A DNA stretch of 63,483 bases, filler included, from 5 parts of 5 records of this genome joined end to end with filler, not necessarily neighbours in it; one strand, 5' to 3'; positions 24,665 through 41,425 are shown, counted from the first letter of the whole stretch. Numbers and translations: made by a program. The notes: a model not told the origin generated them from the sequence alone.

Positions 24665-25006
24665 ATGGGCGAAGATAACACGAAACCACCACAGAAAATT
24701 GCGCAGAAATTTCAAGTTCTTCAGCTTGAATATTCTTGGCGCATAGAAAAACGGCTACAGGAGATTGAAAATTCCTGGCGATCCTATCGAGATCACTTTG
24801 ACCAAGAAAAACTAGCGACACTCGTAAACGAAGTCCATAGATTGGCAGGCTCTGCTCCCACTTATGGCTTCGAACTGCTTGGTAAATTGGCTGCAGAAGC
24901 GGAAGATTCTCTCGAGAAACTGCAAAACAGTCAATCGAATGATACTGAGGTTGAAGCTGTTATTTTACAACTCGTCGCATACAAATCCATCGCACCTGAG
25001 AAGTAA
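24665..25006 (+). CDS. stand-alone Hpt (histidine phosphotransfer) protein
   Basis: VHRLAGSAPTYGF motif in a 113-aa helical protein. Confidence 0.88.
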   Translation: MGEDNTKPPQKIAQKFQVLQLEYSWRIEKRLQEIENSWRSYRDHFDQEKLATLVNEVHRLAGSAPTYGFELLGKLAAEAEDSLEKLQNSQSNDTEVEAVILQLVAYKSIAPEK

Positions 25007-25020
25007 GAACGATTTCTGCT

Positions 25021-27066
25021 GTGAGAATAGCGAGTTTTACCATCTTCCGAGAAATGAGGAGTGCATTGTTAGCCATGCAACAGTTAGATGCTCCTGAAGG
25101 TAGGTCTTTCAATATCGCCTCTCAATTCGCAAAGCTTCCATTCGGCATTCAGTCGGTTCTCGTTGTACTAGTTTACTTTTTGCTTGCAGTCGGTGGTATT
25201 ATTCTCACGCGAGAAACAGGGAGGATTGCCTGGATATGGTTGCCTAATGCGGCGTTACTTGCAGTTGTTCTAGAGCTCGAACCTCCGCACCAGGCTAAAT
25301 TGATGGTCGCTGGCTTTGCTGGTAACCTTCTTGCCAATATCACAGTTGGTGATAGCCTTTCCAACGCAATTATCTTGTCTACCTTCAATACATTGGAAAT
25401 TTCAATTTGCATTTTGTGTCTACAAAAAGCTTGTCCGCATATTGATCTTGGGCGCCCCAAACATTTGTTGAATTTCGCGTTGATTGCCGGCGGTCTAGCG
25501 CCAGCTATCGTCGGTCTACTGGCATCTACATACCTAAACCGTCTATTTGAAGCACCGTTCTGGCCAGTCTTTATTAATTGGTACGGCGCAGACGCATTAG
25601 GCATGCTTTTGATCGCACCGTTCGTTCTTGCGAGAATACCCAATAATCAACGTACAACAGAGAAGGAAAGTCTCACTAAACCTGTAACGTTTGCGATCTT
25701 GTTGCTCTGTGGCCTAGTTACTTTTGCGGTATTTTACCAATCGTCATATCCGTTACTTTTCCTGGTGATGTTGCCGCTAGCGCTCGCTGCATTTACGACC
25801 GGTGTTATCGGAACAGCACTTGCCACCTCAGTAGTTGCGCTCATTGCAATTGGTTTTACCATCTATGGCACTGGACCTTTTGCACTTATGCAGAGCGAAC
25901 TCAATATCAAGGTTCTTGTTCTTCAGATTTTTCTAGTATCCTGCGTGCTCTTCGGCCTGAGTACTGCGGCTGTATTGACCCAGCAACGATTATTGAAGCT
26001 AAAACTCGTCACGCTGACGAAAGCCGCGCAGCAGGCAAACGAAGCTAAGAGTGAGTTTTTGGCGACTGTAAATCATGAACTACGCACACCGCTAACCTCG
26101 ATACATGGCGCTCTAGGGCTGCTCGGAGGCGGCGCTGGTGGTGAACTTCCCGCCAAGGCCCGGAAGTTGCTAGCTATAACCGAAAGTAACTGTGATCGGC
26201 TGATCCTGCTGGTGAACGATATTCTGGAAATGGAAAAAATTGAGTCCGGAAAATTTTCTCTTACCATTACAATGAAGTTATTGCGAAGTTCTCTGGAAGA
26301 GCTCATCTACACAAATCAAAGTTACCTCCCGCAAAAGCAGATCTCGATTGTCCTTATAGACAGAGCACCAAAAGCAACAGTTAAAGTAGATGAACCGAGG
26401 TTTCAGCAAGCTTTGGCCAACCTTGTTGCTAATGCAATCAAATTTTCACCCGAACAATCCATTGTTCAAGTGATTGCGAGATACAATGGGAATAAAGTTA
26501 GAATTAGTGTCATCGATGAAGGGCCTGGGATACCCGACCACTTTGTACACAAGGTTTTTCAAAAATTTGAACAGGCTGATAGCGGAAGTACGCGAACGAC
26601 CACCGGCACCGGGCTTGGTCTCAGCATTTCGAAAGCTCTAATCGAACTCATGGACGGAACGATCGATTTCCGGCCGAACAGCTCGGGAGGCACAGAATTC
26701 TTCATAGATATTCCAGTAGTCGAAGCCGAAGAAGTTCAGGAAAATTTGCCTAAGATGCTGATTTTCACATCAGATAAGGCAAATGCGTTAGAAGTTTCGT
26801 CCCTTGCGTTTCATGCAGACTGGTATGCTGATATCGTTTCTACGGTCCCTGGTCTCGAATGGTTGATCAAATCGACCTCGTACGATGCCATCGTTGTCGA
26901 CAACTTGCTCCTCAAAGATGGAACGACCGAGCAAGCATTACGCGTTGCCGTAACCGCAGCTGTCGGTGCAAAGGAACTCCCCATATTCTCCCAGGACGAA
27001 GTGGAAACTTTTCTTGAGGAAACTCCCCAGAAAAAGCTCGAAAGATTAAAAACACAACCAGCCTGA
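25021..27066 (+). CDS. MASE1-domain sensor histidine kinase with degenerate C-terminal receiver-like domain
   Basis: Multi-TM MASE1 region (IWLPNA, WYGADALG); H-box FLATVNHELRTPL; NLVANAIKFS, DEGPGI and GTGLGL boxes. Confidence 0.92.
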   Translation: MRIASFTIFREMRSALLAMQQLDAPEGRSFNIASQFAKLPFGIQSVLVVLVYFLLAVGGIILTRETGRIAWIWLPNAALLAVVLELEPPHQAKLMVAGFAGNLLANITVGDSLSNAIILSTFNTLEISICILCLQKACPHIDLGRPKHLLNFALIAGGLAPAIVGLLASTYLNRLFEAPFWPVFINWYGADALGMLLIAPFVLARIPNNQRTTEKESLTKPVTFAILLLCGLVTFAVFYQSSYPLLFLVMLPLALAAFTTGVIGTALATSVVALIAIGFTIYGTGPFALMQSELNIKVLVLQIFLVSCVLFGLSTAAVLTQQRLLKLKLVTLTKAAQQANEAKSEFLATVNHELRTPLTSIHGALGLLGGGAGGELPAKARKLLAITESNCDRLILLVNDILEMEKIESGKFSLTITMKLLRSSLEELIYTNQSYLPQKQISIVLIDRAPKATVKVDEPRFQQALANLVANAIKFSPEQSIVQVIARYNGNKVRISVIDEGPGIPDHFVHKVFQKFEQADSGSTRTTTGTGLGLSISKALIELMDGTIDFRPNSSGGTEFFIDIPVVEAEEVQENLPKMLIFTSDKANALEVSSLAFHADWYADIVSTVPGLEWLIKSTSYDAIVVDNLLLKDGTTEQALRVAVTAAVGAKELPIFSQDEVETFLEETPQKKLERLKTQPA

Positions 27067-27091
27067 ACTCAGAGCGTGAAGCAAACACAAG

Positions 27092-28240
27092 ATGAAGCAA
27101 CGGCCTAAACCACTTTCTACCGATTTTCTCGAGAAGGAACTTCTTGAGCGTATTGGAACCGACAGAGCTATATTTGATTTTTTTCGAGATAGTTCTCGAA
27201 GTGGTATCTTGTATAGTGACTTGGAAGGGCCCGGTAATGAATGGGTTAGCGACCAATTTTGGATAGCACTGGGTCTCGATCCATCCGCAAATAACCTATT
27301 CGCCGATACTTGGAGAAACTACCTTCTGCCGGAAGATCACGGCAAAGCACTAGCCTTTTTCCAAAGACCAGACGAAGATCCCCAAAACTGTTCAAGTCAA
27401 ACACTACGATTTCGCCACAGTCAAGGGTCAATTGTCACAATGCAGAGCCGGACTTTTATTGTCAGAAATAATGATGGCAAGCCTATTAGGATGCTTTCTG
27501 TCTTTACGAATATAAGCAAACTTAAACAAATTAAGGATAGCTTTCGCAGAGCCAATGAAGAGATACGAGACATTGCATACGCGGCTTCACACGATTTGAA
27601 AGCTCCACTCAAGAGCATTTCCGGACAACTGCAGCTACTTGAAAGTCTCTGTATGGATGCACTGCCACCTTTGACAAAAACGTTGATGGAAAACATACAA
27701 ACGTCGCTAGATCGGATGTCATCCACAATCGATGGTCTTCTCGACTATTCACAAACAGCGACACACGAAGTCAGCAAAAGGCAGTTTTTTCTTCGTGATC
27801 TTGTCACCGACATTCTCGAAGACCATCACGGAGACTTGAAAAGCATACCTGCCCTGGTCACAAGCGACTGCGATTGCTCAATCTATTCCAGTTCTGATCT
27901 TACCAGGCAAATTCTGAATAGCTTTGTCGACAACGCAATCAAGTACAGGCGCAGAGACGAGGGATTGACGCTAAAGATCCTGGGAAGGGAACGCGAAACC
28001 GGTTGGCTAATTAGTGTCGAAGACAATGGCATAGGCATCGAAGAACGATATCAGGATCGCGTTTTTGAACTGTTGCAACGACTACATACGCAAGAAGAGA
28101 TTTCTGGTGCCGGACTTGGCTTATGCATTGCCAGGAAATCAGCTGAGCACCTCGGTGGAAAGATTTGGTTTCACTCCGATCCAGGTATTGGCAGCACGTT
28201 CTATGTCTTCCTTCCCAAAGAGAGAGCGTATGTCGGGTAA
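27092..28240 (+). CDS. cytoplasmic PAS-domain histidine kinase (Cph1/bacteriophytochrome-like transmitter)
   Basis: PAS/PAC domain, H-box YAASHDLKAPL, DNAIKY, DNGIGI and GAGLGL boxes. Confidence 0.92.
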   Translation: MKQRPKPLSTDFLEKELLERIGTDRAIFDFFRDSSRSGILYSDLEGPGNEWVSDQFWIALGLDPSANNLFADTWRNYLLPEDHGKALAFFQRPDEDPQNCSSQTLRFRHSQGSIVTMQSRTFIVRNNDGKPIRMLSVFTNISKLKQIKDSFRRANEEIRDIAYAASHDLKAPLKSISGQLQLLESLCMDALPPLTKTLMENIQTSLDRMSSTIDGLLDYSQTATHEVSKRQFFLRDLVTDILEDHHGDLKSIPALVTSDCDCSIYSSSDLTRQILNSFVDNAIKYRRRDEGLTLKILGRERETGWLISVEDNGIGIEERYQDRVFELLQRLHTQEEISGAGLGLCIARKSAEHLGGKIWFHSDPGIGSTFYVFLPKERAYVG

Positions 28241-28670
28241 ACTACTGAACACGATCGTTCTCATTGACGATAGTGAAATCGACATTTTTACCAATCAACT
28301 CATGATCGAATGCAGCGGTTTTGCAGAACGTGTTGAGCTTTTCTCCTATGCTGGTGATGCTCTCAACTACTTAAATCAAGCCAATATAGGCGATATAGAT
28401 TTTATTTTCCTGGATTTGAGTATGCCAAAAATGAACGGGTTTGAGTTTTTGGTTCAATTTGAAAAATTTAGACAGTCTAAGCATTCAAAATCGGTCCTTG
28501 TCATGCTGACGTCTTCGACGGTAGCGAAGGACCGTGACACTCTGAACAATTTTTCCGGAACGAATGTTTTTCGGAACAAACCACTAAACATGAAAAAGCT
28601 GGAGCAATTGACGAAAGAGCATTTTGGCAACCGTATCAACTCAATGAACCGAAACCTTTTCAGAACCTAA
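28230..28670 (+). CDS. single-domain response regulator
   Basis: LIDDS, IFLDLSMPKMNGFEF, LTSS and NKPL motifs; ATG overlaps the end of the kinase gene. Confidence 0.9.
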   Translation: MSGKLLNTIVLIDDSEIDIFTNQLMIECSGFAERVELFSYAGDALNYLNQANIGDIDFIFLDLSMPKMNGFEFLVQFEKFRQSKHSKSVLVMLTSSTVAKDRDTLNNFSGTNVFRNKPLNMKKLEQLTKEHFGNRINSMNRNLFRT

Positions 28671-28682
28671 GGCACGCGTACC

Positions 28683-29144
28683 TTGCACGACGTTAATCCT
28701 GAAACATTCGAAGAGACACACGACGACTTTGGGAAATCTCAGACCACAGGTCTGACAGCAGTTATTATTGATGACTGCCGTCCTGATCTCAATTTGCAAC
28801 GCTTGGCCCTTCAGGCGAACGGAAGTTTTCAGCAAATAGTAGAGTTCAACAGTCCCTTGAAGGCGCTTAGCGCTTTTGTGTCTAGATCCGTTACAGCGGA
28901 CTTGATTCTGTTGGATTATCGCATGCCATGGATGATCGGTCCGGAATTCATTACCGAATATGAGCGCAACGTGAGCAATATCAAGCCGAGACCTCATATC
29001 GTGATGTTCTCAGCAATGCCGGCAATGGAACTTCGGAACCAAAAGAGTAAATCATGCTTACTTTTAGGGGTTTACCCAAAGCCGATTACGCTCAATGCTA
29101 TCGAGCTCATCGTGGAAAAACTGGGTATCCATTCGATTGATTAG
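28683..29144 (+). CDS. single-domain response regulator
   Basis: IIDDC, ILLDYRMP, MFSA and PKPI motifs. Confidence 0.85.
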   Translation: MHDVNPETFEETHDDFGKSQTTGLTAVIIDDCRPDLNLQRLALQANGSFQQIVEFNSPLKALSAFVSRSVTADLILLDYRMPWMIGPEFITEYERNVSNIKPRPHIVMFSAMPAMELRNQKSKSCLLLGVYPKPITLNAIELIVEKLGIHSID

Positions 29145-29212
29145 ATACCGTGAGATAAGCTCGAACTTCGCTCCCACGCAGCTTCAGTGTCGAATAGTGG
29201 ATTTTTCTAACC

Positions 29213-29581
29213 ATGATCAAAGCTCTTTACGTCGACGACGATACCGACATATCAACGATTGTCGAGATGTGCTTGGAAATGAACGAAAATTTTGAAGTCC
29301 TCTGCGTCAATTCCGGAAACCAAGCACTAGTAAAAAGCGAGGCTTGGCAACCAGACATAATTTTGTTGGATTATATGATGCCAGAAATGGACGGTCCTGA
29401 GACTTTTCTGCGGCTTAAGCAAAATCCTGCGACAAAAGATATTCCTGTGGTGTTCGTCACCGCGAAAACAATGCAAGAGGATGTTTCAAAACTTCTCGAG
29501 CTTGGAGCAAAAGGAGTGATTTCCAAACCTTTCGATCCACTCAGTCTTGCTACAGAAATTCAGGCGTTCTTGCGTGAATAA
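29213..29581 (+). CDS. single-domain (CheY-like) response regulator
   Basis: YVDDD, LLDYMMPEMDG, FVTAK and SKPF motifs. Confidence 0.93.
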   Translation: MIKALYVDDDTDISTIVEMCLEMNENFEVLCVNSGNQALVKSEAWQPDIILLDYMMPEMDGPETFLRLKQNPATKDIPVVFVTAKTMQEDVSKLLELGAKGVISKPFDPLSLATEIQAFLRE

Positions 29582-29607
29582 TTTAGGCCAGGTGAGTGGC
29601 TGCGGAA

Positions 29608-32319
29608 TTAGGCGCAGCGCTTTCTTTCTTTTATTTCGTCAACGATAACTGCAAAACGATTAACAAAGTCTCCGGGCCTATTCCTTGATTTAACCAGTAT
29701 ATCATCAACATATATGTGATGAATATTTTCGTCTCTTGCTGTCACTACAACAATTTTTGTTTTTTCCGGATTAGGCACATAACTTATTAGGTCAAGACCT
29801 TCGCCATCTTTCAGCATTCTGTCAATTATTATTAAGTCAAAAGTGTATTCTTCCAGAAGCCGTCTTGCTTCAAGTATTGTTCTCGCATGCACTAGCTCAA
29901 GCTCACCGTCCATTCCCGTTCCGAGCACAATATGGAAATCAGTGTCATCTTCCAGATGAAGTGCGCGTACTTTCGCCCTTGCGGTCGATAGCGTTCCGTT
30001 GTCACTCGTCTGACTGATGATCATGTTCTTGAGCGGAAACTCTACCCAAAAGACGGTTCCGGTGCCGATGACGGTGTTAAATCCGATTTCACCATGCATC
30101 CCTTCGACAATCCGTTTCGTAATGTTCAAACCAAGGCCTGTACCACTTTGCCTCCTGGCGACTCCGCTTTCTGCCTGTGAGAACGGTTCGAATATATAAG
30201 CTTTGAAACTCTCGGGAATACCGTCCCCTTCATCCTCCACTTCCAACCTTACACGCTGTCCGGAATGAGAAGTCCGGACGATTACTTTTCCCTGTACCTT
30301 GGTAAATTTAACAGCATTTGATATGAGATTGCTTAGAATTTGTTGGAGCTTATCTGCATCCAGTTCTACGATAAGATCTTTTGAGACCAATTCTGATTTC
30401 AACTCGATCTCTGCATCACTTGCATATCCTTGGTTTAGTTCGATTGCGTTTTGGACTTCTTTATTGAAATTCAAGTTCTTAAACTCGTAATGCGTCTTTT
30501 CTGTTTGCAATTTTTCAAAGTCGAGAATGTCATTCACAAGAACGATCAAGCGTTCTGTATTTTTCTGGGCCATGGTAATCAACTGCCGCACTTTCGGTGC
30601 AAGATCTTTTGGTGCCATCGTGTCAATAAGCGACAATGAACCCCGAATAGAGGTCAATGGTGTGCGGAGCTCGTGACTAACAGTTGACACAAATTCTCCT
30701 CGTAAACGTTCAACTTCCTTGCGTTCACTGATATCGCGAATAATTCCGGAATATTTAGTCTTGCCATCGACTTGTACGACATTGATCGCGAGTTCAATCG
30801 GAAAGACCCTGCCCCACCTATCAACAGCTTCAAGTTCCCTCAATTTGTCGATAACTTTGCCACCGTTGCCTTCACGGAACCTCTGTAGATAGTTGTCATG
30901 GCTCCTTGCAATCTCGGGCTTCATGAGCCTCGAAACGTTTGAGCCAATAATCTCCTCGGCATTGTATCCGAATATTCGTTCGCAACTGGGGTTAAACTCG
31001 ATAATTTTACCTGCATCATTTATCAGGATCAGTCCGTCGACAACATTGTTTACAATGGCCGCTGAGCGTTGCCGGCCTTCGATCAGTTTCAAATTACGAC
31101 TTTGAATAGCTTCGGCCAATTCTCCTATTTCGTCGCTTCTCTGCGTTGGAAGGTCGTTCAAGCGGTCATCAGGGCCAGAAAAGCGAACCCGGTTAGTCAA
31201 AGCAGACAGAGGAAGCATCATACGCCGAGCAAAGACTGTCGCAATGACAGTACTTAAGCCAATCAGTAATAGTCCCAGCAAAATAAACTGGACAAGATTT
31301 TGATTGGCGGTCGCAAAATATTCCTCTCGCGGAACTGCTACAAAAACCCCCAGGTTTGCTGAGGCCTGGTCAAAGACGCTGTCTTGACGGACATAATAGC
31401 CAACGGTTCCACTGGTCGCGAAAAAACCGTCTTTCCCCGAAACCATGACATTGTTCAAGATCGGTGGAATTGGTCTTGTCAGTTTGTCATGGAGTTCCAA
31501 TCGGTACGTCTTTTGATGGCTATCAATGCCATGCTCCATAAAGTCACCAAGGTCGTTGATCACAAAGGTATGCCGTTTCGGGGCAATTTCCTGGAACGCG
31601 TTCTGAAGCATTTTCTCATAATTGACGTTTATTATGAGGAAGCCGAAGCGCGAGCCATCCGACGCATCAATCGGGTACATGCCGCGTAGCGTAGGCGTTT
31701 GGTTTCCGTCATCACTCCCCCGCTCCCTGTTGTAGGTCACATTGGAAAAAGTGACTTGGCCCTTCGGAGCGAGCATTGCCTGTTGATAGTATGGTTCATC
31801 AGACTTTCGCTGAAGTTCTTCTTTCGGAGTAGTCTCGTAACCGCCCGCGCCAATTTCGACACGAACCAATTCGCGACCATCATCAGCAGCGCTTATATAG
31901 CGGAACTGAAAGTAATCGCTGCGGCCTCTGAGGACTGCTCGAAAAATCGTCGCCAAACGAGAGCGCCATTGGTCAGTCGTAGAACCGTCCGTTGGGTCAA
32001 TGTCACCGTTTTGAATGCTTCTAATAAGCCCTTGGATCGGAGGTGTTTGAGAAATAGTCACCAGGTCGTTGGCAATTATGTGATAATCTAAATAAAAACG
32101 TTGTGAGAGAATCTGAGCTTCGGTCTGTAGGTTAACTTGGGCCAGTCTATCCGACTCGGTACGAATTTTCAGAAAGGAAATGGTCCCGATGGCGAACGTG
32201 GAAATGGCAACGCAACAAGCCGTCAACGCCATAATCCGGTAGCTTAATCCGTTGCGGCGCTGGATGTGAGGCCGATCTGAAGTCGACCCTCGATACATGG
32301 AAGTCGTATTATCAGCCAT
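29608..32319 (-). CDS. hybrid sensor kinase: TM-Cache-like-TM-HAMP-PAS-HisKA-HATPase-REC
   Basis: Two TM helices flanking a periplasmic domain; HAMP (RSDEIGELA); FixL-like PAS (SHDNYLQRF); FVSTVSHELRTPL; NLISNAVKF; GTGLGL; C-terminal REC (LEDD, IIDRML). Confidence 0.93.
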   Translation of the reverse strand: MADNTTSMYRGSTSDRPHIQRRNGLSYRIMALTACCVAISTFAIGTISFLKIRTESDRLAQVNLQTEAQILSQRFYLDYHIIANDLVTISQTPPIQGLIRSIQNGDIDPTDGSTTDQWRSRLATIFRAVLRGRSDYFQFRYISAADDGRELVRVEIGAGGYETTPKEELQRKSDEPYYQQAMLAPKGQVTFSNVTYNRERGSDDGNQTPTLRGMYPIDASDGSRFGFLIINVNYEKMLQNAFQEIAPKRHTFVINDLGDFMEHGIDSHQKTYRLELHDKLTRPIPPILNNVMVSGKDGFFATSGTVGYYVRQDSVFDQASANLGVFVAVPREEYFATANQNLVQFILLGLLLIGLSTVIATVFARRMMLPLSALTNRVRFSGPDDRLNDLPTQRSDEIGELAEAIQSRNLKLIEGRQRSAAIVNNVVDGLILINDAGKIIEFNPSCERIFGYNAEEIIGSNVSRLMKPEIARSHDNYLQRFREGNGGKVIDKLRELEAVDRWGRVFPIELAINVVQVDGKTKYSGIIRDISERKEVERLRGEFVSTVSHELRTPLTSIRGSLSLIDTMAPKDLAPKVRQLITMAQKNTERLIVLVNDILDFEKLQTEKTHYEFKNLNFNKEVQNAIELNQGYASDAEIELKSELVSKDLIVELDADKLQQILSNLISNAVKFTKVQGKVIVRTSHSGQRVRLEVEDEGDGIPESFKAYIFEPFSQAESGVARRQSGTGLGLNITKRIVEGMHGEIGFNTVIGTGTVFWVEFPLKNMIISQTSDNGTLSTARAKVRALHLEDDTDFHIVLGTGMDGELELVHARTILEARRLLEEYTFDLIIIDRMLKDGEGLDLISYVPNPEKTKIVVVTARDENIHHIYVDDILVKSRNRPGDFVNRFAVIVDEIKERKRCA

Positions 32320-32342
32320 GACGTACCTTTGTTGTCGCGCGG

Positions 32343-33659
32343 TTATAGTTCGAACTGCGATGCCATTGATTTGGAATATTCTTTCACGCAGTTACGACCA
32401 TTGGCCTTCGCTTCGTAAAGTGCAACGTCAGCAAGGGTGATAAGTGCCTCGCTGCCACGTTCCGCATCGCAGCCTACAAGACCACAGCTAAAAGTTACAT
32501 GAAAGGTTTTTTCACCTGCAGAAAACTCAAAACGTTGAAATTCCTCTCGAATACGATCGAAAATTCTAACGGCCTGACACGGAATAGCGTCGAGCAGGAC
32601 GACTGCGAACTCCTCACCTCCGTATCGACCTACAATGTCTATGTTTCGTAAAGAACTCTTCAGATGACTTGCAAAAGTCTGGATAACGGTGTCTCCCACT
32701 TGGTGACCATACCTATCGTTGATCGACTTGAAATGGTCGAGATCGAGTAGGGCAACAGTAAATGCATTTCCCGTCCGGGCACTACGGTGCAGTTCTGCAA
32801 CAAGCTTTTCCTTGAAACTGACATGGTTTAGAAGGCCGGTTAGACCATCCCGAACCATGATCTGGCGCAGGTCGACCGCCCGTTCAGCCCTCATGCGAAC
32901 CATCTTGACCAAATATCCCACATCGACGGGTTTCTTAATGAAATCATCCCCGCCAACTTGGCGCGCCTTCTCCTGGATGCTTCTGTTTCCTACAGAGGAC
33001 AAAAAAAGGATGGGCAAAGAGGTATGTTGGGGATCCAAGCGAATCGCCTTCGCAACATCCAGTCCACTCGCTTGAGGCATATCGATATCCATGATCAGAA
33101 GGTCAGGACTGAACTCGGCAATTACTACTTCTGCCTGAAGTGGATTGGCCAGAACCGCGACTCTGAGGCCGCATTCTTCCAGCGCCAACGCGTATACAGA
33201 TGAGGTCAACTCGTCATCATCAATTATTAGCACTCTGGCGTCGGGAACATCGCTTCGTTGAGTTACCTCCAAGCTTGAAAGTATCTCAACCGCGTTGAGC
33301 CGACTGGCGATCAATCCGCTTGCTCCCATACGCACAGCGTCGATTTTGAAAGAAAAGTCACGATTGTCAGTAATCAACAACACCCTGCAATCGTCATGCA
33401 AAGAACGGCAAATGGCAAGATGGTGATCTGCTTCGGGATTAATAAAAGCTGCAATGCATTTTTGGGGATCTTTACATTCTGTCCAGCTCACAACATTCAA
33501 CCCGAGACCCTCCAGAAATTTGACTGTCTGCTCAATGCGATCTGGTGTCTCCAATACGATAACTGCCCGGTTATCTGAAAATGTCTCTTTAGGGCTTTGC
33601 ACCTTAACTGGCAGAGCCGTGATGGCGCTCTGGTCATCTTCGGTATTGTGAGCTTTCAT
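32343..33659 (-). CDS. diguanylate cyclase response regulator (degenerate REC-REC-GGDEF, PleD-like)
   Basis: Intact second REC, DGLTGLLN, DLDHFKSINDRYGH, I-site RNID and active site RYGGEEF. Confidence 0.95.
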   Translation of the reverse strand: MKAHNTEDDQSAITALPVKVQSPKETFSDNRAVIVLETPDRIEQTVKFLEGLGLNVVSWTECKDPQKCIAAFINPEADHHLAICRSLHDDCRVLLITDNRDFSFKIDAVRMGASGLIASRLNAVEILSSLEVTQRSDVPDARVLIIDDDELTSSVYALALEECGLRVAVLANPLQAEVVIAEFSPDLLIMDIDMPQASGLDVAKAIRLDPQHTSLPILFLSSVGNRSIQEKARQVGGDDFIKKPVDVGYLVKMVRMRAERAVDLRQIMVRDGLTGLLNHVSFKEKLVAELHRSARTGNAFTVALLDLDHFKSINDRYGHQVGDTVIQTFASHLKSSLRNIDIVGRYGGEEFAVVLLDAIPCQAVRIFDRIREEFQRFEFSAGEKTFHVTFSCGLVGCDAERGSEALITLADVALYEAKANGRNCVKEYSKSMASQFEL

Positions 33660-33680
33660 TACGGGATCCGTTCCGAAAAT

Positions 33681-34028
33681 TCAGGTATCTTGAGACTTTA
33701 CCCAGTCCGGCATTGGAACTCCGTCGGTCAGCGTTCCGTCGATTTGGTCAATCAAGTTGTTGACCGCCTCGATGACTAAACTAATGTCAGCGCCTTGCTC
33801 GACTAGGTCCTCAACCTTTTTCGCTGGCAACGAGAGTTGCTCGCAGTTAAATAGTCGAGCGCTTCCTACTATTCTATGCGCAATAAAACGAAGCGGTTCT
33901 AGGCCGGTATCTGCAAAGTCGCCACGCGCAATATTAGCGTTCGTGATCAACTCCCTCTTATCCCGGTCGAGGCGTTGTTCGAAAGCGGCCACGAGTTGGG
34001 CCGCTTTTGCTTCAAAGGCATTGGACAT
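33681..34028 (-). CDS. stand-alone Hpt protein
   Basis: AHRIVGSARLF motif; 115 aa. Confidence 0.82.
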   Translation of the reverse strand: MSNAFEAKAAQLVAAFEQRLDRDKRELITNANIARGDFADTGLEPLRFIAHRIVGSARLFNCEQLSLPAKKVEDLVEQGADISLVIEAVNNLIDQIDGTLTDGVPMPDWVKSQDT

Positions 34029-34194
34029 TCTTAAACTCGTGCACAGATGTTTCCCTGAGCGTCACCGAGTGGAGTTAAAATACCTTTATCAACCAAACCA
34101 AATAAAAGTATTATTTTCTATATCATGCGAATAATTTTCCGCTTCTAAGGAATACGTATTCTGTTCCTTGATATGTTTAACAGGGGAAATTTTG

Positions 34195-34994
34195 AGCGTG
34201 TCGCAAAGTTGGTCGAGTTAACCCTACCTTGAGATTTAGCTTTTGAAAGAGCGCTCCCGTATTTGGAGTTCTGCGGTATAGTTCTCATTGTCGTCGCGGA
34301 CAAACTGAAGCGTCAGGCAAATGCTGACTTCAAGGGCGACAGTTTGAGGCGTGGTTTTACTCATTCAGGCAGTGTCCTGGTATTTGCGCTATCCGCTCAG
34401 TTATCGGGATTTGGAGGAGATGTTCCTGGAACGAGGGTTCCGGGTTGACCATAGCACCATCAACAGATGGGGCCTGACATATGCGCCATTGATAGAGTAG
34501 GACTGCGCCGGTTGCGAAAAATCGCGTTGCGGATCCATCTGGATAGATAAGAACTATGTGAAAATCCGGGGCTAATGGCGCTATTTGTGTCAGGCCATCG
34601 ACAAACACAGCAATCCAGTGGATTTCCTGCTCACAGCAAAACGTGATCATTGTGCTGCCGAGCGTTTCTTCCGCAAGATGTTACAAAATGAACCGCTGCT
34701 TTCGCCTGGCAAGATCGGTACAGCCGGCGCCAATACGTTTCCCGCCAAGATTACAACCTCTGTCGATGAAGGCTGGCTCCGAGCTGACCCGGTTCATTAC
34801 GTCATCAAGCATCACCAACAAGGCATCGAAAGCGACCATTCCCGTGTGAAGAAGAATATGCCGAAGGTCGGTGGAGCGTTCGCGAACAGAATGATCTGCT
34901 TGCCGCGATCTTCGGAATTGAATTATTTAACGGGACCTAAAATTCACTCCCGAATCGGGAGTCATCTGTTCATCGACGAAACTTGCGGCACGCT
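34195..34994 (+). mobile_element. degenerate IS6-family element (transposase pseudogene)
   Basis: Fragments WYLRYPLSYRDLEEMFLERG, VDHSTINRW, VDFLLTAKRD and IESDH broken by stops and frameshifts; imperfect IRs AGCGTGTCGCAAAGTT / AACTTGCGGCACGCT; 800 bp. Confidence 0.88.
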
Positions 34995-35138
34995 TTCCAG
35001 ATGTCTTCAGAGCGAACAGAAACCCACACGAATGGAACGACAAGCGCCCTTGGGCTCTGATGAAATAGCTTGATTTGAAACAGATCAAGATCCCGGTGCA
35101 GGTCGATGGCAATGATCATCGCTGGATCCAAGTTCTCA

Positions 35139-35483
35139 CTAAATCTTTCGGCCAAACAATGACGATTGCTCTGGTCGAATTTCTCTGACAAGATTCTCTA
35201 AGATCATAAGGCGTTTTTCGATCTCACCACGATAGGCATCTCGTTCCCATCCATTAGCAGCAGACGCTTGCAATAGCGCTTCAAGTGATGTGGCAGCCGC
35301 ATTCACGTTCATAAAGCCGATAGTGCCACTGCTGCCTTTTATCTTGTGCAAAACACCCATTGTGTTAGCATCTGGCGGACCGCTGGACGGGCCTTGTCTA
35401 TAAAGCTTAGTTAACTCGTTCATCATCTCCTTGAGTGTTTCGCAATGGTGAGCGATTAAAACGTCGAGCTTACTCAAACTCAT
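35139..35483 (-). CDS. stand-alone Hpt protein
   Basis: LHKIKGSSGTIGF motif; AAGGAGAG RBS before ATG 35483. Confidence 0.88.
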   Translation of the reverse strand: MSLSKLDVLIAHHCETLKEMMNELTKLYRQGPSSGPPDANTMGVLHKIKGSSGTIGFMNVNAAATSLEALLQASAANGWERDAYRGEIEKRLMILENLVREIRPEQSSLFGRKI

Positions 35484-35519
35484 GTTTCTCTCCTTGCGAC
35501 ATAACTGCAAGTTAGGATT

Positions 35520-36596
35520 TTAGTTTTCAATACCAAGCAGACTCTTTACCCTCTCTGTAACGGTACTGAGCAACGCCAAAGCCTGTTCTGATATCCCACG
35601 AATGGTTTCGTTCCGTCGGAAAACTTGCACCTTTGTGTTGGTCGACATTTCGGCCGGATCCCGAATGGCAATTCTGGCCAACTGAGAGCGTTCTACGGGC
35701 TTGAACGTGTTCTGGAACTCTTCCGGCAATCTGTCTGAAACAGGTAAAATCTCCTCAATCGAACCTTCAATTGAAACCTGGCCAGAACTGACAAGAACCG
35801 CTTCACCAACTTCTACAGGAAAGAGATGCCGGGATGGCAGATAGGCTAGAACATAGCGATCTCCGGTATAAATAGAGAGCATTCGCTCGCCAGTGAGGAA
35901 AACCTCACCTTGCGAAGGCAAACCGCTGCTGGTGATCCCCGATACTGGCGCGTTGATTAAGCCATCTCCATAGTGACGACCAAGACGCTCCAAGGCCATC
36001 TGTGCACTTTCAAGTGCGGGCTTCAGCGCCGCCATTGCTGTCTGCTCACTGGCAACACGGGCTTTCAATCTGATGAGTAACTCCTGCGCCGCATTGCTCT
36101 CTGTTAAAATATCGAGCAATCGGTCGGCGGCGGCCAATCCCTTGTCGCTTAGTTGTTCGTAAGATGCTCGAAGGTTTTCGGCGTGAGACGCTCGTTCTAC
36201 TGCAATCGGTAACAGGTTGCTTGCAACCTCTATTTCCTCTTTTTTCTCAATATCGCGTTGGCGCAGTTCCGCGAGCCGTAAGCTGAGTTCGGCGAGACGG
36301 TCGGCAATTTCGATCGAGTTAAAGATTAAAAGAGGCTCACCTTCTTCAATTTTCTGTCCGATCCGCACGAAGACCTCATCGAGCCGCCCAGCATACTCTG
36401 CCTCAATATCAACGCGGTCCTGTACCACAACACCATCGGCCCTGAAGATGATGTAGTCACCAACGACATAGTTGAGGATCGCAATCACAAGAACGATAAG
36501 AAGGAAAAAGTAAACCCACCGGCTGTTGCCTCTGACTTGCTTCCTACGGTCGTTCACATGAGTATCGGTTCTCTCACGCCTCTTGAGCCGCCGCAT
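35520..36596 (-). CDS. HlyD/membrane-fusion-protein family periplasmic adaptor
   Basis: Single N-terminal TM, lipoyl half-motifs (GRLDEVFVRIGQKIEEGEPLL; INAPVSG) and a long coiled coil. Confidence 0.85.
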   Translation of the reverse strand: MRRLKRRERTDTHVNDRRKQVRGNSRWVYFFLLIVLVIAILNYVVGDYIIFRADGVVVQDRVDIEAEYAGRLDEVFVRIGQKIEEGEPLLIFNSIEIADRLAELSLRLAELRQRDIEKKEEIEVASNLLPIAVERASHAENLRASYEQLSDKGLAAADRLLDILTESNAAQELLIRLKARVASEQTAMAALKPALESAQMALERLGRHYGDGLINAPVSGITSSGLPSQGEVFLTGERMLSIYTGDRYVLAYLPSRHLFPVEVGEAVLVSSGQVSIEGSIEEILPVSDRLPEEFQNTFKPVERSQLARIAIRDPAEMSTNTKVQVFRRNETIRGISEQALALLSTVTERVKSLLGIEN

Positions 36597-36597
36597 T

Positions 36598-37860
36598 CTA
36601 TATCCCCCTCACATCATGCACCTTTTGAGGAACATAGCTGTCACGATAAGAACTATCGCGAAGCCATTCATCGAGATAAGCACCTAGACGGATGAAACGC
36701 ATAAGAATTCCATTGTAAAATGTATAAGCAACGACATAAGGCAAAAGTCTGATGCTGTTTACATAAGGTGTCGTATAGGCGGCCACCAGGAAGACAAATA
36801 AGTCTAGAAGTATCAATACTATTTTTACTGACAAGAGAAGAACGATTGCAAAGCTCCCATACTGGATAAACAGCCAAGCAACATAAAACGGCATAAGAGC
36901 CGCGCCAATAACGTTGAAAACCAAAAACTCAAACTGATGCAACATCTCTGAAATTCGGAATCTTGGATCAAAGGGGTTGAACTCAAAGACGTATTTACGG
37001 AAACGCAGGCGAATAGCATCCCTCTCCCACCTGAACCGCTGCCGGACCAGACCGGAGAGTTTCACCGGCACGTCTGTGTAGCAGACCGCATCGACACGAA
37101 AGCCAATCTTCCAACCGTAGGACCTAAGCCGGAGAGTAGCATCAAGATCCTCTCCACCTCCGGCATCTGCACCGCCGGTTTCCTCAAGAGCGCTCTTGCG
37201 AAACGCTGAAAAACCTCCTGAACTGCAAGTAACCTGATCCAGCACAAGAGCACTCTGTTTGCCGAGAGAAAGTGTAACCAGATATTCAATGGCCTGGACG
37301 GTTGCAAGGAGACTAGCCTCCGGATTGCGTACTTGAATATTGCCTGCAACACTGCCAATGGTCGGGTCTTCAAAGGGTTCAACGATTCGGCGGATAGCGT
37401 CCCGGTCGAGAGAACAGTCGCAATCGATGTTGACCAATATGTCCCCGGTTGCTAGCCGCTCGCACACGTTCAAGCCGGCAGATTTCCCTCCACGCAAATC
37501 TGTGGCGTATGCTTTGTCGATCTCTCCCTTGGCTAGAAGGCTGCGTAACACTTCCCTGGTGCTGTCTGTTGATCCGTCGCTGAATGCGACGATCTCATCG
37601 GGTTGTCTGGACTGTTCCTTCAAGGAGGCTATGCATCTTGGGAATGCGTCTGCTTCGTTATGGCCAGCTACGATTACCGTCACCTTATATCTGTGGGAGG
37701 CTTCGAGTGCTCGCTGTTTCGGTCTGTTCATGAAGGCGCCGACCGTGAAAAGGAGAAAGTAGCGGGGGATTTCGAAAATGATCACGATCGCAAAGAGAAG
37801 GTACATACTGACCGTGCTTTGCGAGAAGAGATAGGCTAGGCTCTCAGAGACTGGGTTCAT
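36598..37860 (-). CDS. processive GT2 polysaccharide synthase (PgaC/IcaA/NodC/HAS-like)
   Basis: D,D,D,QxxRW signature (SDGSTD, IDCD, GEDLD, QRFRW); GGKS, QAIEY and CSSGGFSAFR motifs; N- and C-terminal TM helices. Confidence 0.92.
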   Translation of the reverse strand: MNPVSESLAYLFSQSTVSMYLLFAIVIIFEIPRYFLLFTVGAFMNRPKQRALEASHRYKVTVIVAGHNEADAFPRCIASLKEQSRQPDEIVAFSDGSTDSTREVLRSLLAKGEIDKAYATDLRGGKSAGLNVCERLATGDILVNIDCDCSLDRDAIRRIVEPFEDPTIGSVAGNIQVRNPEASLLATVQAIEYLVTLSLGKQSALVLDQVTCSSGGFSAFRKSALEETGGADAGGGEDLDATLRLRSYGWKIGFRVDAVCYTDVPVKLSGLVRQRFRWERDAIRLRFRKYVFEFNPFDPRFRISEMLHQFEFLVFNVIGAALMPFYVAWLFIQYGSFAIVLLLSVKIVLILLDLFVFLVAAYTTPYVNSIRLLPYVVAYTFYNGILMRFIRLGAYLDEWLRDSSYRDSYVPQKVHDVRGI

Positions 37861-39737
37861 GAAAAGAGATCCTCCAAGCCAAACACGGTCATCCGCGCCT
37901 GCAAGTCGACTTTTAGTCCCGACTGTGACGCCTCGAGATACTGCGGTAGGTTTGCTCGGGCGTTCTCCGGAGAAACTCGATTGATGAGTACGTAATCATG
38001 GACTTCCCCATGATAGGTGACGGAGTTTTCGCCGAAATAATTCTTAATGTTCTCAAGCAACTGGACTCTGGAATTCTCAACCATCCGGATGCCATGTTCA
38101 GAAATCATTCTGCGCCGCTCCGGAAAGCCGACAGTGAGCAAAGAAAATGGTGTTTCCTTGTCTGAGAACTCTCGAGCGGCTTTGTTTAACTGAATGACTA
38201 ACTCTAACGGCAGTTCTGCGAAGCGCAACTTTGTCTGAAGTCCATCAATCACGATGGGCCCTTCCTCGACGAACGCAATACCCTTTTCTGACAAACTGTA
38301 CGTGAAGACGTCTTTAGTTTCGATCACCTCTCCGTCGGTGTGAAAGCCGCAGTCCATACATTGAAATCCGACGGCTGCATCGCTGGAAGTTGCACCACAA
38401 GCCTGGCAACGGATGATTATGCCAGGCTTGTCATAGTCGACCCCGAAGTGTCTTAGTTCTCGGGAGCATTTGGGGCACACGAGGTCCGAGCCTTGGCGGA
38501 AGTCTTCCTCCGAGGCCTGATAAGCGCATTTGAAATGATGAATGAACTTGGACTCTTTCAGGTTTGGCGACCTGCAACTGAAACATTCCTCACGAACGTT
38601 CATCCTAACGGATCGACACCCGCTGCAGATATGGAATCTGTCAAAGAAGGTGCTTCTCGTTAAGCCAAGTTCATTCAGACCTGTTGTAGCACCGACAACT
38701 TCGTTGGAAGCGAGACAAATGTTGAAGTCAATGCCACTTGTTTTGTTGGCCTTGTAGTGTGGTTTTAGACTGTTTTTGCGCACGTAGGTTGAAGCAGCTA
38801 TCTTATCGGAGAGAGACTTGCTTTGCCGAACATGAAGATGGACAGACAACCGTGCTTCTGAAAAGTCGCGGATAGTCTCTTCAATGGTGCGAGGAATAGA
38901 TCCTCTCGGAAGCGAGGGGACAGAGACGTCTGCGCAAGATCCCAGGCTCCCAGTTTCATCAATGATGGGAAGGAGACATAGGTCTCCGATCTCCCACAAT
39001 TCGTGTAATTCCTCCACCTCGGCTGGCTCGCTCACGACTACAGCTTCATACTTACCGCCAGAAGCCAGATAATTTCGTGTCGCGACGGACACTCCGGCCG
39101 GACCAATATCTTCCGGCCACCTAAGACCTAGAAGACTGACGGAACCAAAATTGACTCGGAATTGGTCGCTGACAGTGTGGTGCTGAAGGGAAGACTGCTC
39201 GGTCTGTTGTTGCTGGATGGCCGCGAACTCGTTGCTCGCAGAAACAGAGTCCTCGTGTATAAATTCACCGCCCTCATTTGTGTTCGCCGAAGGTGACAAC
39301 TGTTTGATAGGGGTGGTTGTGTCTCGTATTTTTTCTTGGCTTAGGTCGATAAAATTCAGAACTTCATCGATGTCAAATGGCTTGGGAAAGACTTTCTCGA
39401 ATTGCTCGCAGCTGTTCTTGTCTTCAAGCAATGCCGCGGGATCGGCAGTCATGGCGACAAATATCGGTGCAGCCTTGCCACTTGCCTGGCGCCGGAATTC
39501 CGCAACGACCTCTGAACCATTAAGGCCAGGCATGTGAAAGTCCATCAGGGCTAAAGAATAGGTTTTGTCGAGAAGTCTCCTTAAAGCTTCCGAACCGTCC
39601 CTGGCGACATCAGCATCGTATCCTTTCGACGTAAGAAGAAGTTTGAGAATGTCTTGCGTGACAGGTGAGTCTTCCGCAATTAAGACCTTCTTATCGATAC
39701 CCACCAGATTTTCCTTGTCTTGTCCGGTTTTTGACAT
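37857..39737 (-). CDS. response regulator with TackOD1-like 11-Cys output domain and C-terminal degenerate GGDEF-like fold
   Basis: N-terminal REC (AEDS, MDFHMP, MTA, PKPF); five CxxC plus one HxxC; C-terminal PFSLLTV...HG...YVL alpha/beta region. Start ATG 39737 or 39767. Confidence 0.8.
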   Translation of the reverse strand: MSKTGQDKENLVGIDKKVLIAEDSPVTQDILKLLLTSKGYDADVARDGSEALRRLLDKTYSLALMDFHMPGLNGSEVVAEFRRQASGKAAPIFVAMTADPAALLEDKNSCEQFEKVFPKPFDIDEVLNFIDLSQEKIRDTTTPIKQLSPSANTNEGGEFIHEDSVSASNEFAAIQQQQTEQSSLQHHTVSDQFRVNFGSVSLLGLRWPEDIGPAGVSVATRNYLASGGKYEAVVVSEPAEVEELHELWEIGDLCLLPIIDETGSLGSCADVSVPSLPRGSIPRTIEETIRDFSEARLSVHLHVRQSKSLSDKIAASTYVRKNSLKPHYKANKTSGIDFNICLASNEVVGATTGLNELGLTRSTFFDRFHICSGCRSVRMNVREECFSCRSPNLKESKFIHHFKCAYQASEEDFRQGSDLVCPKCSRELRHFGVDYDKPGIIIRCQACGATSSDAAVGFQCMDCGFHTDGEVIETKDVFTYSLSEKGIAFVEEGPIVIDGLQTKLRFAELPLELVIQLNKAAREFSDKETPFSLLTVGFPERRRMISEHGIRMVENSRVQLLENIKNYFGENSVTYHGEVHDYVLINRVSPENARANLPQYLEASQSGLKVDLQARMTVFGLEDLFS

Positions 39738-40039
39738 GTGGATTTGTCCGCTCCTGCCGACGCTCATTCGAAGAAGTTATAATGCGACCTCTCTTCCATT
39801 TTTTCGGACACAACTGTGGCGGTATATTGTTAATCGCGGTCAAATAAATACGTTTAACAAGAATAAAATAGAAAGAATATTGATATAAATCACAATATAA
39901 TTTCAACTTTCTAGAAATATATAAATAAAAATTGAGAAGATATGGATTAAAATTTAAAAAAACTAATTAAATAATGATCAAAGTTTATTAATATTATTTT
40001 TATACTGTAAAAGCAGAAAGATCGTGTTGATTGCCTAGA

Positions 40040-41395
40040 ATGAGGAAAGCCAGGACACGCAGATCCCTTCCGAGGGCAAAACCCGCCGTCCGGCCCGTCG
40101 CAACCGGGGCAACCTGCCGAAGGACCTACCGCGCATCGAGCGTGTGATCGAGCCCGACAACCTGCAATGTCCCTGCGGCTGTGGTGAGATGCACAAGATT
40201 GGCGAGGATCGCACGGAGCGGCTCGACATCGTGCCCGCACAGCTGCGCGTGATCGTCACCGTCCGCCCCAAATACGCCTGCCGCGCCTGTACCGACGGCG
40301 TCACCCAGATGCCGGCACCGGCGCATCTCATCGAAGGCGGTCTGCCGACGGAAGGCGCCATTGCGCATGTTCTGGTTGCCAAGTACGCAGACCATTTGCC
40401 CTTGCACCGGCAGAGCCAGATCCTTGCCCGGTCGGGCATCGATATCCATCGCAGCACGCTGGCGGATTGGGTCGGCACCGCCGCGTTCCACCTCGCCCCG
40501 GTGTTCGACCGGCTGGCCGAGCATCTGAAGGTGTCGACCAAGCTGTTCATGGACGAGACCACGGCGCCGGTGCTGGATCCGGGCCGCGGCAAGACGAAAA
40601 CCGGATATCTATGGGCCTTGGCCCGAGACGACCGGGCCTGGGGCGGGGACGATCCACCCGGCGTGGTCTTCTTCTATGCGCCTGACCGCCGCGGAGAGAA
40701 CGCGGAGAAAATCCTTCGTGGCTTCGACGGGGTCCTGCAACTCGACGGCTACCAGGGCTACAACTGCCTGACGCGCCCGTCCCGCAAGGGTGGCTATCCG
40801 ATCCGCGTGGCCCATTGCTGGGCGCACGCACGGCGGAAACTGAAGGAGGTGTTCGATAGAGACGGCTCCGAGATCGCCGCCGAAGGCTTGCGCCGGATCG
40901 CCGACTTCTACAGGGTCGAGGCCGATATCCGCGGAACGGCGCCCGGGCAGCGGCTCTCGGCCCGGCAGGCCCGCACCGCGCCTCTGGTCGCCGCCTTTGG
41001 CGAATGGCTGCAAGAGCAACGCCGCCGGGTCTCCGCCAAGTCCCGTCTCGGCGAGAAGCTTGCCTACATCCATCGTCACTGGGACGGTTTGCAGACCTTC
41101 CTCCACGACGGCCGTGTCGAGATTGATAGCAACAGTGTCGAGAATTTGATCCGGCCAATTGCATTGAACAGGAAAAATGCATTGTTCGCCGGCCATGACG
41201 AGGGCGGCCGCACCTGGGGCCGCATCGCATCGCTCATCGAGACCGCGAAAATCAACAACGTCGAACCCTTCGCCTATCTCAAGGCCACCCTCGAAGCCAT
41301 TGCTGGCGGTCATCCGAAAAGCAGGATCGACGAACTCCTGCCGTGGAACTTCACCCCGTCAAGATGAAACCCGGTGGGCCGCAGACGGCGCTTAC
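40040..41395 (+). mobile_element. IS66-family element, 5'-truncated (TnpC transposase plus right end)
   Basis: CPCGCG, KYADHLPLHRQ, FMDETT, CWAHARRK and DSNSVENLIRPI motifs; stop at 41367; terminus GGCGCTTAC (reverse complement GTAAGCG); no tnpA or tnpB; abrupt rise in GC. Confidence 0.92.
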
Positions 41396-41425
41396 GGAGA
41401 AACTCCCTCTCGATCCAACATGATC

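Follow-up and report, generated by a model that had tools for sequence, protein, structure and literature searches.

How is a polysaccharide synthase controlled when neither the enzyme nor its periplasmic adaptor carries a recognisable domain for cyclic di-GMP (c-di-GMP), and when the first gene of its operon encodes a receiver-bearing multi-zinc protein? This question is raised by four genes at positions 35139-39767 of the stretch of DNA analysed here (63,483 nucleotides in all, hereafter the window). Cellulose, alginate, poly-N-acetylglucosamine (PNAG), Pel and mixed-linkage glucan are synthase-dependent polysaccharides that are central to biofilms, and to our knowledge all those described are switched on by c-di-GMP. 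An earlier note on this DNA, made from the sequence alone, had proposed that the four genes form a new polysaccharide system. The arrangement is indeed real and conserved, and represents a regulatory variant of synthase-dependent polysaccharide secretion that has not been described before; it works like the c-di-GMP-gated machines and is a member of no named family. It probably encodes a minimal exopolysaccharide machine of the synthase-dependent type with a dedicated regulatory subunit, switched in this case by a phosphorelay.

A conserved and tightly coupled gene set

The four genes lie on one strand and are tightly coupled:

37857-39767, minus strand: regulator, 636 amino acids from the first ATG; Pfam Response_reg and TackOD1
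36598-37860, minus strand: synthase, a family 2 glycosyltransferase (GT2), 420 amino acids; Pfam Glycos_transf_2, Glyco_tranf_2_3 and Chitin_synth_2
35520-36596, minus strand: membrane-fusion protein (MFP), a HlyD-type periplasmic adaptor, 358 amino acids; Pfam HlyD_3
35139-35483, minus strand: histidine phosphotransfer protein (Hpt), the last gene of the operon, 114 amino acids (ATG at 35483, stop at 35139); Pfam Hpt

Exactly as the earlier note had placed them, the regulator stop and the GT2 ATG share four nucleotides (ATGA, 37857-37860), a single nucleotide separates the GT2 from the MFP gene, and 36 nucleotides lie between the MFP stop and the Hpt gene. A Shine-Dalgarno-like AAGGAGAG stands ahead of the Hpt ATG at 35483, and the Hpt reading frame can be extended upstream to a TTG at 35510; in a near-identical plasmid record (described below) the regulator starts 10 codons later than the first ATG of the window. 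The Hpt protein scores 31.2 bits with Pfam PF01627 (cut-off 24.6), its HKIKGSSG carrying the conserved His of HxxKG. The adaptor scores 28.9 bits with HlyD_3 (cut-off 22.2) and 29.6 with HlyD_D23 (marginally below the cut-off of 30), falls below the NCBIfam cut-offs for RND_mfp, EmrA and type_I_hlyD, and has one N-terminal hydrophobic stretch (about residues 28-46, read by eye) that is taken as a membrane helix.

An alignment of regulator homologues was scanned against one genome per species for 185,579 bacterial and archaeal species. A relative is encoded by 181 of the 206 matching stretches; from these 181 the best 80 were taken with 8-kb flanks and searched with the window proteins by tblastn, which gave the following gene orders:

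Regulator-GT2-MFP on one strand: 65/80 loci
Regulator-GT2, then contig end: 2/80 loci
Contig end directly after the regulator: 2/80 loci
GT2-MFP-variant regulator-GT2 (Microbulbifer): 1/80 loci
Regulator-MFP with no GT2 within 8 kb: 10/80 loci

The 80 loci span at least 12 alphaproteobacterial families together with Microbulbifer and a metagenome-assembled genome of Glaciecola, and since the arrangement recurs in dozens of genera it lies far beyond what chance would give. The coupling is conserved as well: the regulator stop and the first possible GT2 start overlap by 4 nucleotides in 23 and by 1 nucleotide in 34 of the 62 loci measured (57/62), and the spacing from GT2 to MFP is -4 to +7 nucleotides in 56 of 59. 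Blind clustering of open reading frames across the loci returned the regulator (78), the MFP (72), the GT2 (64), a single-domain receiver (48), Hpt (40) and assorted kinases as recurrent families, the remaining clusters being antisense shadows of recurrent genes, and in these 80 loci no deacetylase, tetratricopeptide repeat (TPR)/porin secretin or glycosidase recurred near the regulator. The tblastn search placed an Hpt in 44, a single-domain receiver in 56 and a histidine-kinase-like neighbour in 55 of the 80 loci within 8 kb, the last belonging to differing kinase families from locus to locus.

Two further candidates for conserved parts were considered and rejected. A local outer-membrane component is ruled out as such, a TolC homologue being found in 1/80 loci and a Porin_4 gene following the MFP only in the clade that has no GT2. 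The diguanylate cyclase that the earlier note had placed next door to the module drops out of the core for a similar reason: only about 9/80 loci have a true GGDEF match in their 8-kb flanks.

The ten loci with regulator and MFP only (L015, L025, L033, L043, L046, L047, L060, L064, L071 and L077) are a Rhodomicrobium-related clade; in a tree that used eight of the ten (fragmentary L071 and L077 omitted) they have support 100 and represent one change. In most of them a Porin_4 gene comes after the MFP, followed in at least seven by glmU and glmS.

Plasmids gave a reciprocal view. With the MFP, the GT2 and the regulator core (residues 197-636) each queried separately against 72,556 plasmids, the MFP matched 11 records and the core 18, and the top full-length GT2 matches fell in the same records. 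In 16 of the 18 the GT2 gene adjoins TackOD1 (same strand, within about 1.5 kb), the exceptions being two Haladaptatus plasmids, one of which was examined and has no glycosyltransferase gene within 5 kb. The co-occurrence of these genes beyond this one locus, one of the three tests set for the earlier proposal, thus holds in genomes (GT2, MFP and TackOD1 in 65/80 loci) and on plasmids (GT2 beside TackOD1 in 16/18 records) alike.

The plasmids also show variants of the module. TackOD1 proteins of about 460 amino acids that have no receiver overlap the start of the GT2-MFP pair in Phyllobacterium and Methylocystis, and such proteins are placed likewise in Microbulbifer and Plesiomonas, the order on a Plesiomonas plasmid being TackOD1-GGDEF, GT2, HlyD. 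A Halorussus halophilus plasmid (L090, 4950-7911) holds a 145-amino-acid stand-alone TackOD1 protein, a DUF2334 protein and a 496-amino-acid GT2 in an overlapping operon, and for this reason the link between TackOD1 and GT2 may predate the bacterial form that contains an MFP.

In Microbulbifer the module is duplicated (L058, 6425-11583; L061, 5167-10387), a GT2-MFP pair being followed by a receiver-less TackOD1-GT2(-MFP) set. On a Methylocystis iwaonis plasmid (L087, 9121-10575) a TolC-family gene lies two genes 3' of TackOD1-GT2-MFP, past a 197-amino-acid protein that has no Pfam match; among the regions examined, only this one and L034 have a TolC-type gene near the trio. A 782-amino-acid metagenome protein (P0241) that presents itself as a TackOD1-GT2 fusion was discounted, because its long Arg/Pro-rich stretches resemble frame-shift read-through; adjacent genes were probably joined in the assembly, and a true fusion is the less likely reading.

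The regulator and its domains

Five regions can be told apart in the regulator, for which the AlphaFold2 model (77 sequences) has a mean predicted local distance difference test score (pLDDT) of 87.9, rising to 92.5 for the fragment 197-636:

39351-39686, minus strand: receiver domain (REC), residues 28-139; Pfam PF00072, 54.8 bits against a cut-off of 30.2
39180-39308, minus strand: disordered linker, residues about 154-196; pLDDT below 50
38829-39179, minus strand: mid domain, a small alpha/beta fold without a family name, residues 197-313; pLDDT above 90
38292-38828, minus strand: TackOD1 multi-zinc-ribbon domain, residues 314-492; PF18551, 150.1 bits against a cut-off of 32
37860-38291, minus strand: degenerate GGDEF-like domain, residues 493-636; a C-terminal alpha/beta domain

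The receiver is intact. In two homologue alignments its residues E32, D33, D76, T107 and K129 vary little or not at all, and D76 is what we take, by the general pattern of such domains, to be the putative phospho-acceptor. The linker varies in length and sequence among the aligned homologues. Little or no variation is seen at W217-P218, D270 and D280 of the mid domain; the domain has no Pfam match, an ESM Atlas query with residues 197-372 gave no usable match, and receiver-less relatives also have it. The TackOD1 region is modelled as a helical lead-in and then zinc ribbons, with conserved positions C381, C384, C395, C398, H411-x-x-C414, C431, C434, C454, C457, C470 and C473; this corresponds to the described TackOD1 pattern of five CxxC and one HxxC (PMC5847659). 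Homologues of the whole protein numbered 160, and the best 120 of them are mostly about 570-630 amino acids long, nearly all with REC and TackOD1.

The C-terminal domain is less plainly labelled. GEVHD stands where GG(D/E)EF would be, there is no RxxD inhibitory site (I-site), and Pfam GGDEF (PF00990) does not match the window protein, the family's C-termini matching it in 2 of 74 cases (E 0.03). When the fragment 197-636 was compared with the Protein Data Bank (PDB) by Foldseek, GGDEF-domain proteins made up 33 of the 39 rows listed (E 4.1e-4 to 2.5e-2), including DosC, a Thermotoga cyclase, FimX, SadC, PleD, WspR and PelD (4euv). The alignments span about 115-128 columns. Stand-alone GGDEF-domain chains mostly have target-normalised template modelling scores of 0.45-0.59, and multidomain targets score lower; with the full model, the best match is PleD. 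The homologue that occupies this place in the Plesiomonas operon reaches 41.6 bits with Pfam GGDEF (cut-off 23.8) and can be aligned with the window fragment over TackOD1 and most of the C-terminal domain. Linked through this Pfam-positive homologue and seen in the model, the regulator C-terminus appears to be a degenerate, non-catalytic, GGDEF-like fold.

The conserved unit is the mid domain, TackOD1 and the GGDEF-like domain, to which the receiver is an optional add-on. The earlier description of the partner as a phosphorylatable multi-zinc protein is right as to the intact REC and TackOD1, while the mid and GGDEF-like domains had gone unseen.

A possible exchange of inputs

With a profile of the 197-636 core, 2404 cluster representatives are matched at E <= 1e-3, and the stricter limit of E <= 1e-30 leaves 944. 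The representatives fall in two length classes, about 560-620 and about 420-470 amino acids. The presence of the I-site was counted in the best 150 family representatives, 18 of which have no residue at the motif column. Where the N-terminus is extended by 110 residues or more (50 representatives, 44 of them with a Pfam REC), RxxD occurs in 0/50; where there is no such extension, it occurs in 47/82, and among those 47 Pfam GGDEF matches 8, GGDEF_2 matches 2 and REC matches 0. The Plesiomonas and Aeromonas homologues keep RxxD five residues ahead of the degenerate motif. REC and I-site are mutually exclusive, completely so in this sample of 150. Our reading is that one output module (mid domain, TackOD1 and GGDEF-like domain) may take c-di-GMP as its input in some lineages and phosphorylation in others, which fits the frequent Hpt, receiver and kinase neighbours of the REC-type genes and the rarity of a true cyclase near them.

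A different role for the regulator has to be weighed at this point, namely that of a transcription factor whose zinc ribbons bind DNA and which, once its REC is phosphorylated, induces the GT2-MFP-Hpt operon and possibly other genes. Nucleic-acid binding is common among zinc ribbons, response regulators commonly adjoin the genes that they control, and a similar 8-Cys insert is described in the helicase PriA (PMC5847659), which is itself a weak Foldseek match (probability 0.25). However, Pfam detects no helix-turn-helix (HTH) or other DNA-binding family in the regulator, and archaeal proteins in which REC, a winged HTH and TackOD1 are combined suggest that TackOD1 itself is no DNA binder (PMC5847659). 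Receiver-less and stand-alone TackOD1 proteins hold the same overlapping site upstream of GT2, and an overlap of 4 or 1 nucleotides in 57/62 loci suits subunits that are made together, although it is compatible with a regulator too. The relatives combine a degenerate GGDEF with an I-site, the usual mark of post-translational receptors. A transcription factor is thus unlikely, and a post-translational regulatory subunit remains the preferred reading.

The synthase

The GT2 has the hallmarks of a processive membrane enzyme: a first D, DxD, (T/G)ED and QxxRW, with the GT-A catalytic domain lying between hydrophobic segments (read by eye). Across 61 orthologues D95/D99 (SDGSTD), D146xD148, E237-D238 and Q274-R-F-R-W278 are invariant, and the enzyme also carries Q189xxE192Y193 and C212xxG215, so that the D,D,D,QRFRW signature and the QxxEY/CxxG motifs reported before are all present. 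QxxEY is identical in Escherichia coli PgaC, the EY is shared with NodC and the GED is as in NodC; Cx(x)G is not diagnostic, since BcsA has it too. Orthologues are about 420 amino acids long and 50-91% identical. They have no BcsA-type insertion, and are marked by an RWERDA specific to the family and, at the C-terminus, by a conserved SYxDxYVPxKV tail; in the window protein, which is complete at residue 420, neither Pfam nor NCBIfam detects PilZ or any further C-terminal domain.

Residues 384-420 (36598-36711), which read RFxRLxAYxxEW...SYxDxYVPxKVHxVR, are among the family's most conserved non-catalytic parts. The tail was not found in PgaC, NodC, HasA or BcsA by alignment, and it is a candidate docking or gating element.

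Nearest to the GT2 among named NCBIfam profiles are PgaC_IcaA and NodC, and it stays below every equivalog cut-off: 146.7 bits with PgaC_IcaA (TIGR03937; cut-off 422.3), 78.4 with NodC (TIGR04242; 550) and 18.3 with CelA (699.1). Sequence matches in the PDB are weak (an archaeal GT2, 6yv7; hyaluronan synthase, HAS; BcsA). In a tree of 32 rows, 27 bacterial GT2s of the family, including one from Sinorhizobium medicae that has no TackOD1 gene beside it, form one clade (SH-aLRT 97), apart from E. coli PgaC, Rhizobium etli NodC with Bacillus cereus HasA, E. coli BcsA and the Halorussus enzyme; the tree has long branches and few references, IcaA, Alg8 and BgsA being absent from it. Within that set of references, and by the profile cut-offs, the expectation that the GT2 would fall outside the characterised clades is confirmed, as is the absence of PgaA/B/D and IcaB/C/D, none of which occurs on the operon-bearing piece of the window (21573-41425) or in the collinear plasmid region, or is conserved in the 80 loci.

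The donor sugar had been grouped with the GlcNAc type. PgaC_IcaA is indeed the nearest profile, and a GlcNAc-type donor may be taken from the sequence as a lead only. DUF2334 is related to deacetylases, and its gene in the archaeal operon slightly favours such a donor.

A short oligosaccharide or glycolipid, made by NodC-like or GT21-like chemistry and moved with the adaptor's help, might be the product in place of a secreted high-molecular-weight polymer. This would be in keeping with the NodC score, with partial matches to Glyco_transf_21, HpnI and Chitin_synth_2, with a NodC-like size (420 amino acids and few membrane helices), and with the fact that no deacetylase, TPR/porin or glycosidase is conserved nearby in the 80 loci. 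On the other side, the top profile is PgaC_IcaA (146.7 bits), the QxxRW and ED of processive synthases are invariant, the MFP pairing is that of the polymer-making BgsBA system, and neither nodAB-like nor lipid-pathway genes are conserved in the same loci. We regard such a product as improbable, and continue with a secreted polymer.

Genomic setting

The window consists of five contigs joined by paired 44-N spacers, with 12 bases between the runs of each pair, at these positions:

21473-21572: contig joint
41426-41525: contig joint
48435-48534: contig joint
57824-57923: contig joint

The operon is confined to the piece 21573-41425, and therefore statements on the absence of genes from its contig reach about 19.9 kb only. 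This piece has a G+C content of 44-50%, against 53-64% on the others, and is flanked and broken up by fragments of insertion sequences (IS66 and IS6/IS240, by Pfam). Positions 22653-40047 are about 97% identical to, and collinear with, the plasmid 'unnamed2' of Roseibium aggregatum S1616 (NZ_CP128603.1), a marine-biofilm strain, where the annotation of the four genes goes no further than response regulator, glycosyltransferase, hypothetical protein and Hpt-domain protein. Because the DNA is plasmid-like and so close to a plasmid of a biofilm strain, the operon is mobile among marine surface colonisers. A scan of 33000-41400 with Rfam gave no riboswitch and no other RNA family, and promoter-like and terminator-like sites are no commoner than in shuffled sequence.

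The main features around the operon are:

40144-41367: IS66-family transposase, just upstream of the regulator; Pfam
34585-35073, plus strand: fragment of an IS6/IS240-family transposase, between the operon and the downstream signalling genes; Pfam DDE_Tnp_IS240, profile positions 22-115 of 139
33681-34028, minus strand: second Hpt near the operon; Pfam
32343-33659, minus strand: REC-GGDEF cyclase with RxxD and GGEEF; Pfam, and PleD-like by NCBIfam
29608-32319, minus strand: hybrid PAS histidine kinase, candidate phosphodonor; Pfam
28065-29581: three single receivers
27092-28240: PAS kinase
25021-27066: MASE1 kinase
24665-25006: Hpt in the signalling island
Within 23180-34028, in the signalling island: OmpR-type regulator

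Signalling genes are densely packed at positions 23180-34028, an island whose gene order is collinear with that of the plasmid. The second Hpt, the REC-GGDEF cyclase and the hybrid kinase (29608-34028) are a candidate phosphodonor context that lies outside the conserved core. Upstream of the regulator, at 39768-41367, the S1616 plasmid holds a 1299-amino-acid CHASE-domain protein and a single receiver instead; a likely upstream kinase may have been lost from, or moved in, the window strain.

Proposed mechanism

If the operon does encode a minimal synthase-dependent machine, the GT2 would polymerise sugar from a nucleotide-sugar at the inner membrane, threading the chain through its own membrane helices, and the HlyD-type adaptor would span the periplasm and probably pass the chain on to a channel of the outer membrane whose gene lies elsewhere, as proposed for BgsA/BgsB/TolC. 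The regulator, with its mid, TackOD1 and GGDEF-like domains, would stay in the cytoplasm and probably dock on the synthase or the adaptor as an on/off switch; we infer both this contact and the direction of control. It would be made in step with the synthase through the overlapping stop and start codons. Phosphoryl groups would travel from a hybrid kinase to Hpt and on to D76 of the receiver. Phosphorylation of D76 is proposed as the switch because the alphaproteobacterial branch gained a receiver and has no c-di-GMP I-site; in the receiver-less relatives with RxxD the switch would probably be c-di-GMP. The GT2-less clade keeps the regulator together with the MFP, for which reason the adaptor may be the regulator's primary contact.

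That c-di-GMP from the adjacent REC-GGDEF cyclase is the real activator, bound non-canonically by the regulator, the GT2 or the MFP while REC only modulates, is very unlikely. In its favour, the PleD-like cyclase 1.5 kb downstream has the same orientation as the operon and an intact GGEEF and RxxD, relatives of the regulator keep the I-site, and c-di-GMP controls most synthase-dependent systems (PMC13438883). Against it, RxxD at the I-site position is absent from the window regulator and found in 0/50 REC-type representatives, neither the GT2 nor the MFP has a PilZ domain or C-terminal extension, a true GGDEF gene is near only about 9/80 loci, and an insertion-sequence fragment separates cyclase and operon.

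Several observations weigh against the phosphorelay-switched machine that we prefer. (i) Ten loci of one clade keep regulator and MFP with no GT2 within 8 kb, so that it could be the adaptor with which the regulator must pair, unless the GT2 has been relocated. (ii) An S. medicae plasmid has a GT2-MFP pair that is 33% identical and no TackOD1 gene, and the regulator is accordingly not universal among more distant relatives. (iii) The Foldseek E-values for GGDEF likeness are modest, with E <= 0.001 in one match only, and sequence profiles of the family's own C-terminus were not significant for GGDEF (FimX GGDEF at E 0.43, the best PDB profile match being unrelated). (iv) The REC and I-site counts are of cluster representatives and not of independent events, and RxxD is also missing in 35/82 of the forms that have no extension, some of which are fragments. 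(v) A TolC homologue was found within 8 kb in 1/80 loci (L034) and on the one Methylocystis plasmid, and the outer-membrane exit route is therefore an assumed one. (vi) The sole candidate for a TackOD1-GT2 fusion (P0241) looks frame-shifted and gives no evidence of fusion.

A wider proposal can be made only tentatively. TackOD1 with a GGDEF-like domain might be a new class of allosteric subunit that docks on a distinct GT2 family, with or through the MFP, its input swapped between c-di-GMP and phosphorylation, and the system would then be the first phosphorelay-gated synthase machine. If this were true, it would give the 'obscure' TackOD1 a first function, which would perhaps reach the archaea with their TackOD1-DUF2334-GT2 operon.

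Relation to known systems

No description of the gene trio was found in the literature searched, with subscription-only papers lying outside that search. The closest likeness is to BgsA/BgsB(/TolC), which makes the mixed-linkage beta-glucan of Sinorhizobium and Rhizobium, and which is likewise a two-gene core of GT2 and HlyD-type MFP with its outer-membrane partner encoded elsewhere and post-translational control (PMC13438883). The bgsBA genes require TolC, c-di-GMP activates the system post-translationally, and BgsA is described with seven membrane helices and, at its C-terminus, a c-di-GMP-binding domain of its own (PMC13438883). Both halves of such a module stand in one operon here, 1 nucleotide apart, and the pair is contiguous in 65/80 loci. 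In contrast to BgsA, with which it was compared by description only, the window GT2 has 420 amino acids and no c-di-GMP domain, and control is placed on a separate receiver-bearing protein with TackOD1 and a degenerate GGDEF-like domain.

With PgaABCD/IcaADBC the enzyme has QxxEY, ED-x-D and QRxRW in common, as well as the lack of a BcsA-type insertion, but the window system has an MFP where those systems have a porin/deacetylase route, and its GT2 forms a separate clade. As to NodC, there was no grouping with the R. etli protein in the tree and no nod genes lie nearby, either in the 80 loci or in the plasmid region.

PelD, PssE and BcsE are degenerate-GGDEF receptor subunits of polysaccharide synthases, and Alg44 is a further analogy. 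The regulator resembles the first three as a dead GGDEF-fold protein dedicated to one synthase, and its receiver-less relatives keep RxxD beside a degenerate active site (A-site); it differs in having TackOD1 and a novel mid domain, and the window branch has lost the I-site and gained a receiver. PleD-type REC-(REC)-GGDEF regulators share the N-terminal receiver and the C-terminal GGDEF fold, whereas the present protein has no GG(D/E)EF and a GGDEF-like domain invisible to Pfam, carries TackOD1 between its domains, and is tied by its operon to a GT2 and an MFP, being no soluble cyclase. The archaeal TackOD1 regulators have the same Pfam domain with the pattern of 11 Cys and a His, and REC-TackOD1 proteins are listed among them (Galperin et al. 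2018, PMC5847659). There, TackOD1 is tied to type IV pilus loci and its function is called obscure (PMC5847659), whereas the present link is to a GT2 synthase and an MFP, and the protein has a GGDEF-like domain in addition.

What the operon means

The window operon has widespread relatives, with 181 matches in 185,579 species genomes and 2404 representatives of the regulator core. Its switch would be a separate protein built of zinc ribbons and a dead GGDEF fold, and the nucleotide signal appears to have given way to a phosphorelay in one large branch. TackOD1, a domain of unknown function, thereby gains a testable role, and the family as a whole may serve as a natural experiment in which regulatory inputs are exchanged on a fixed output. 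As a compact module of regulator, synthase and adaptor, it could be transferred to other hosts for the making of a possibly new polymer.

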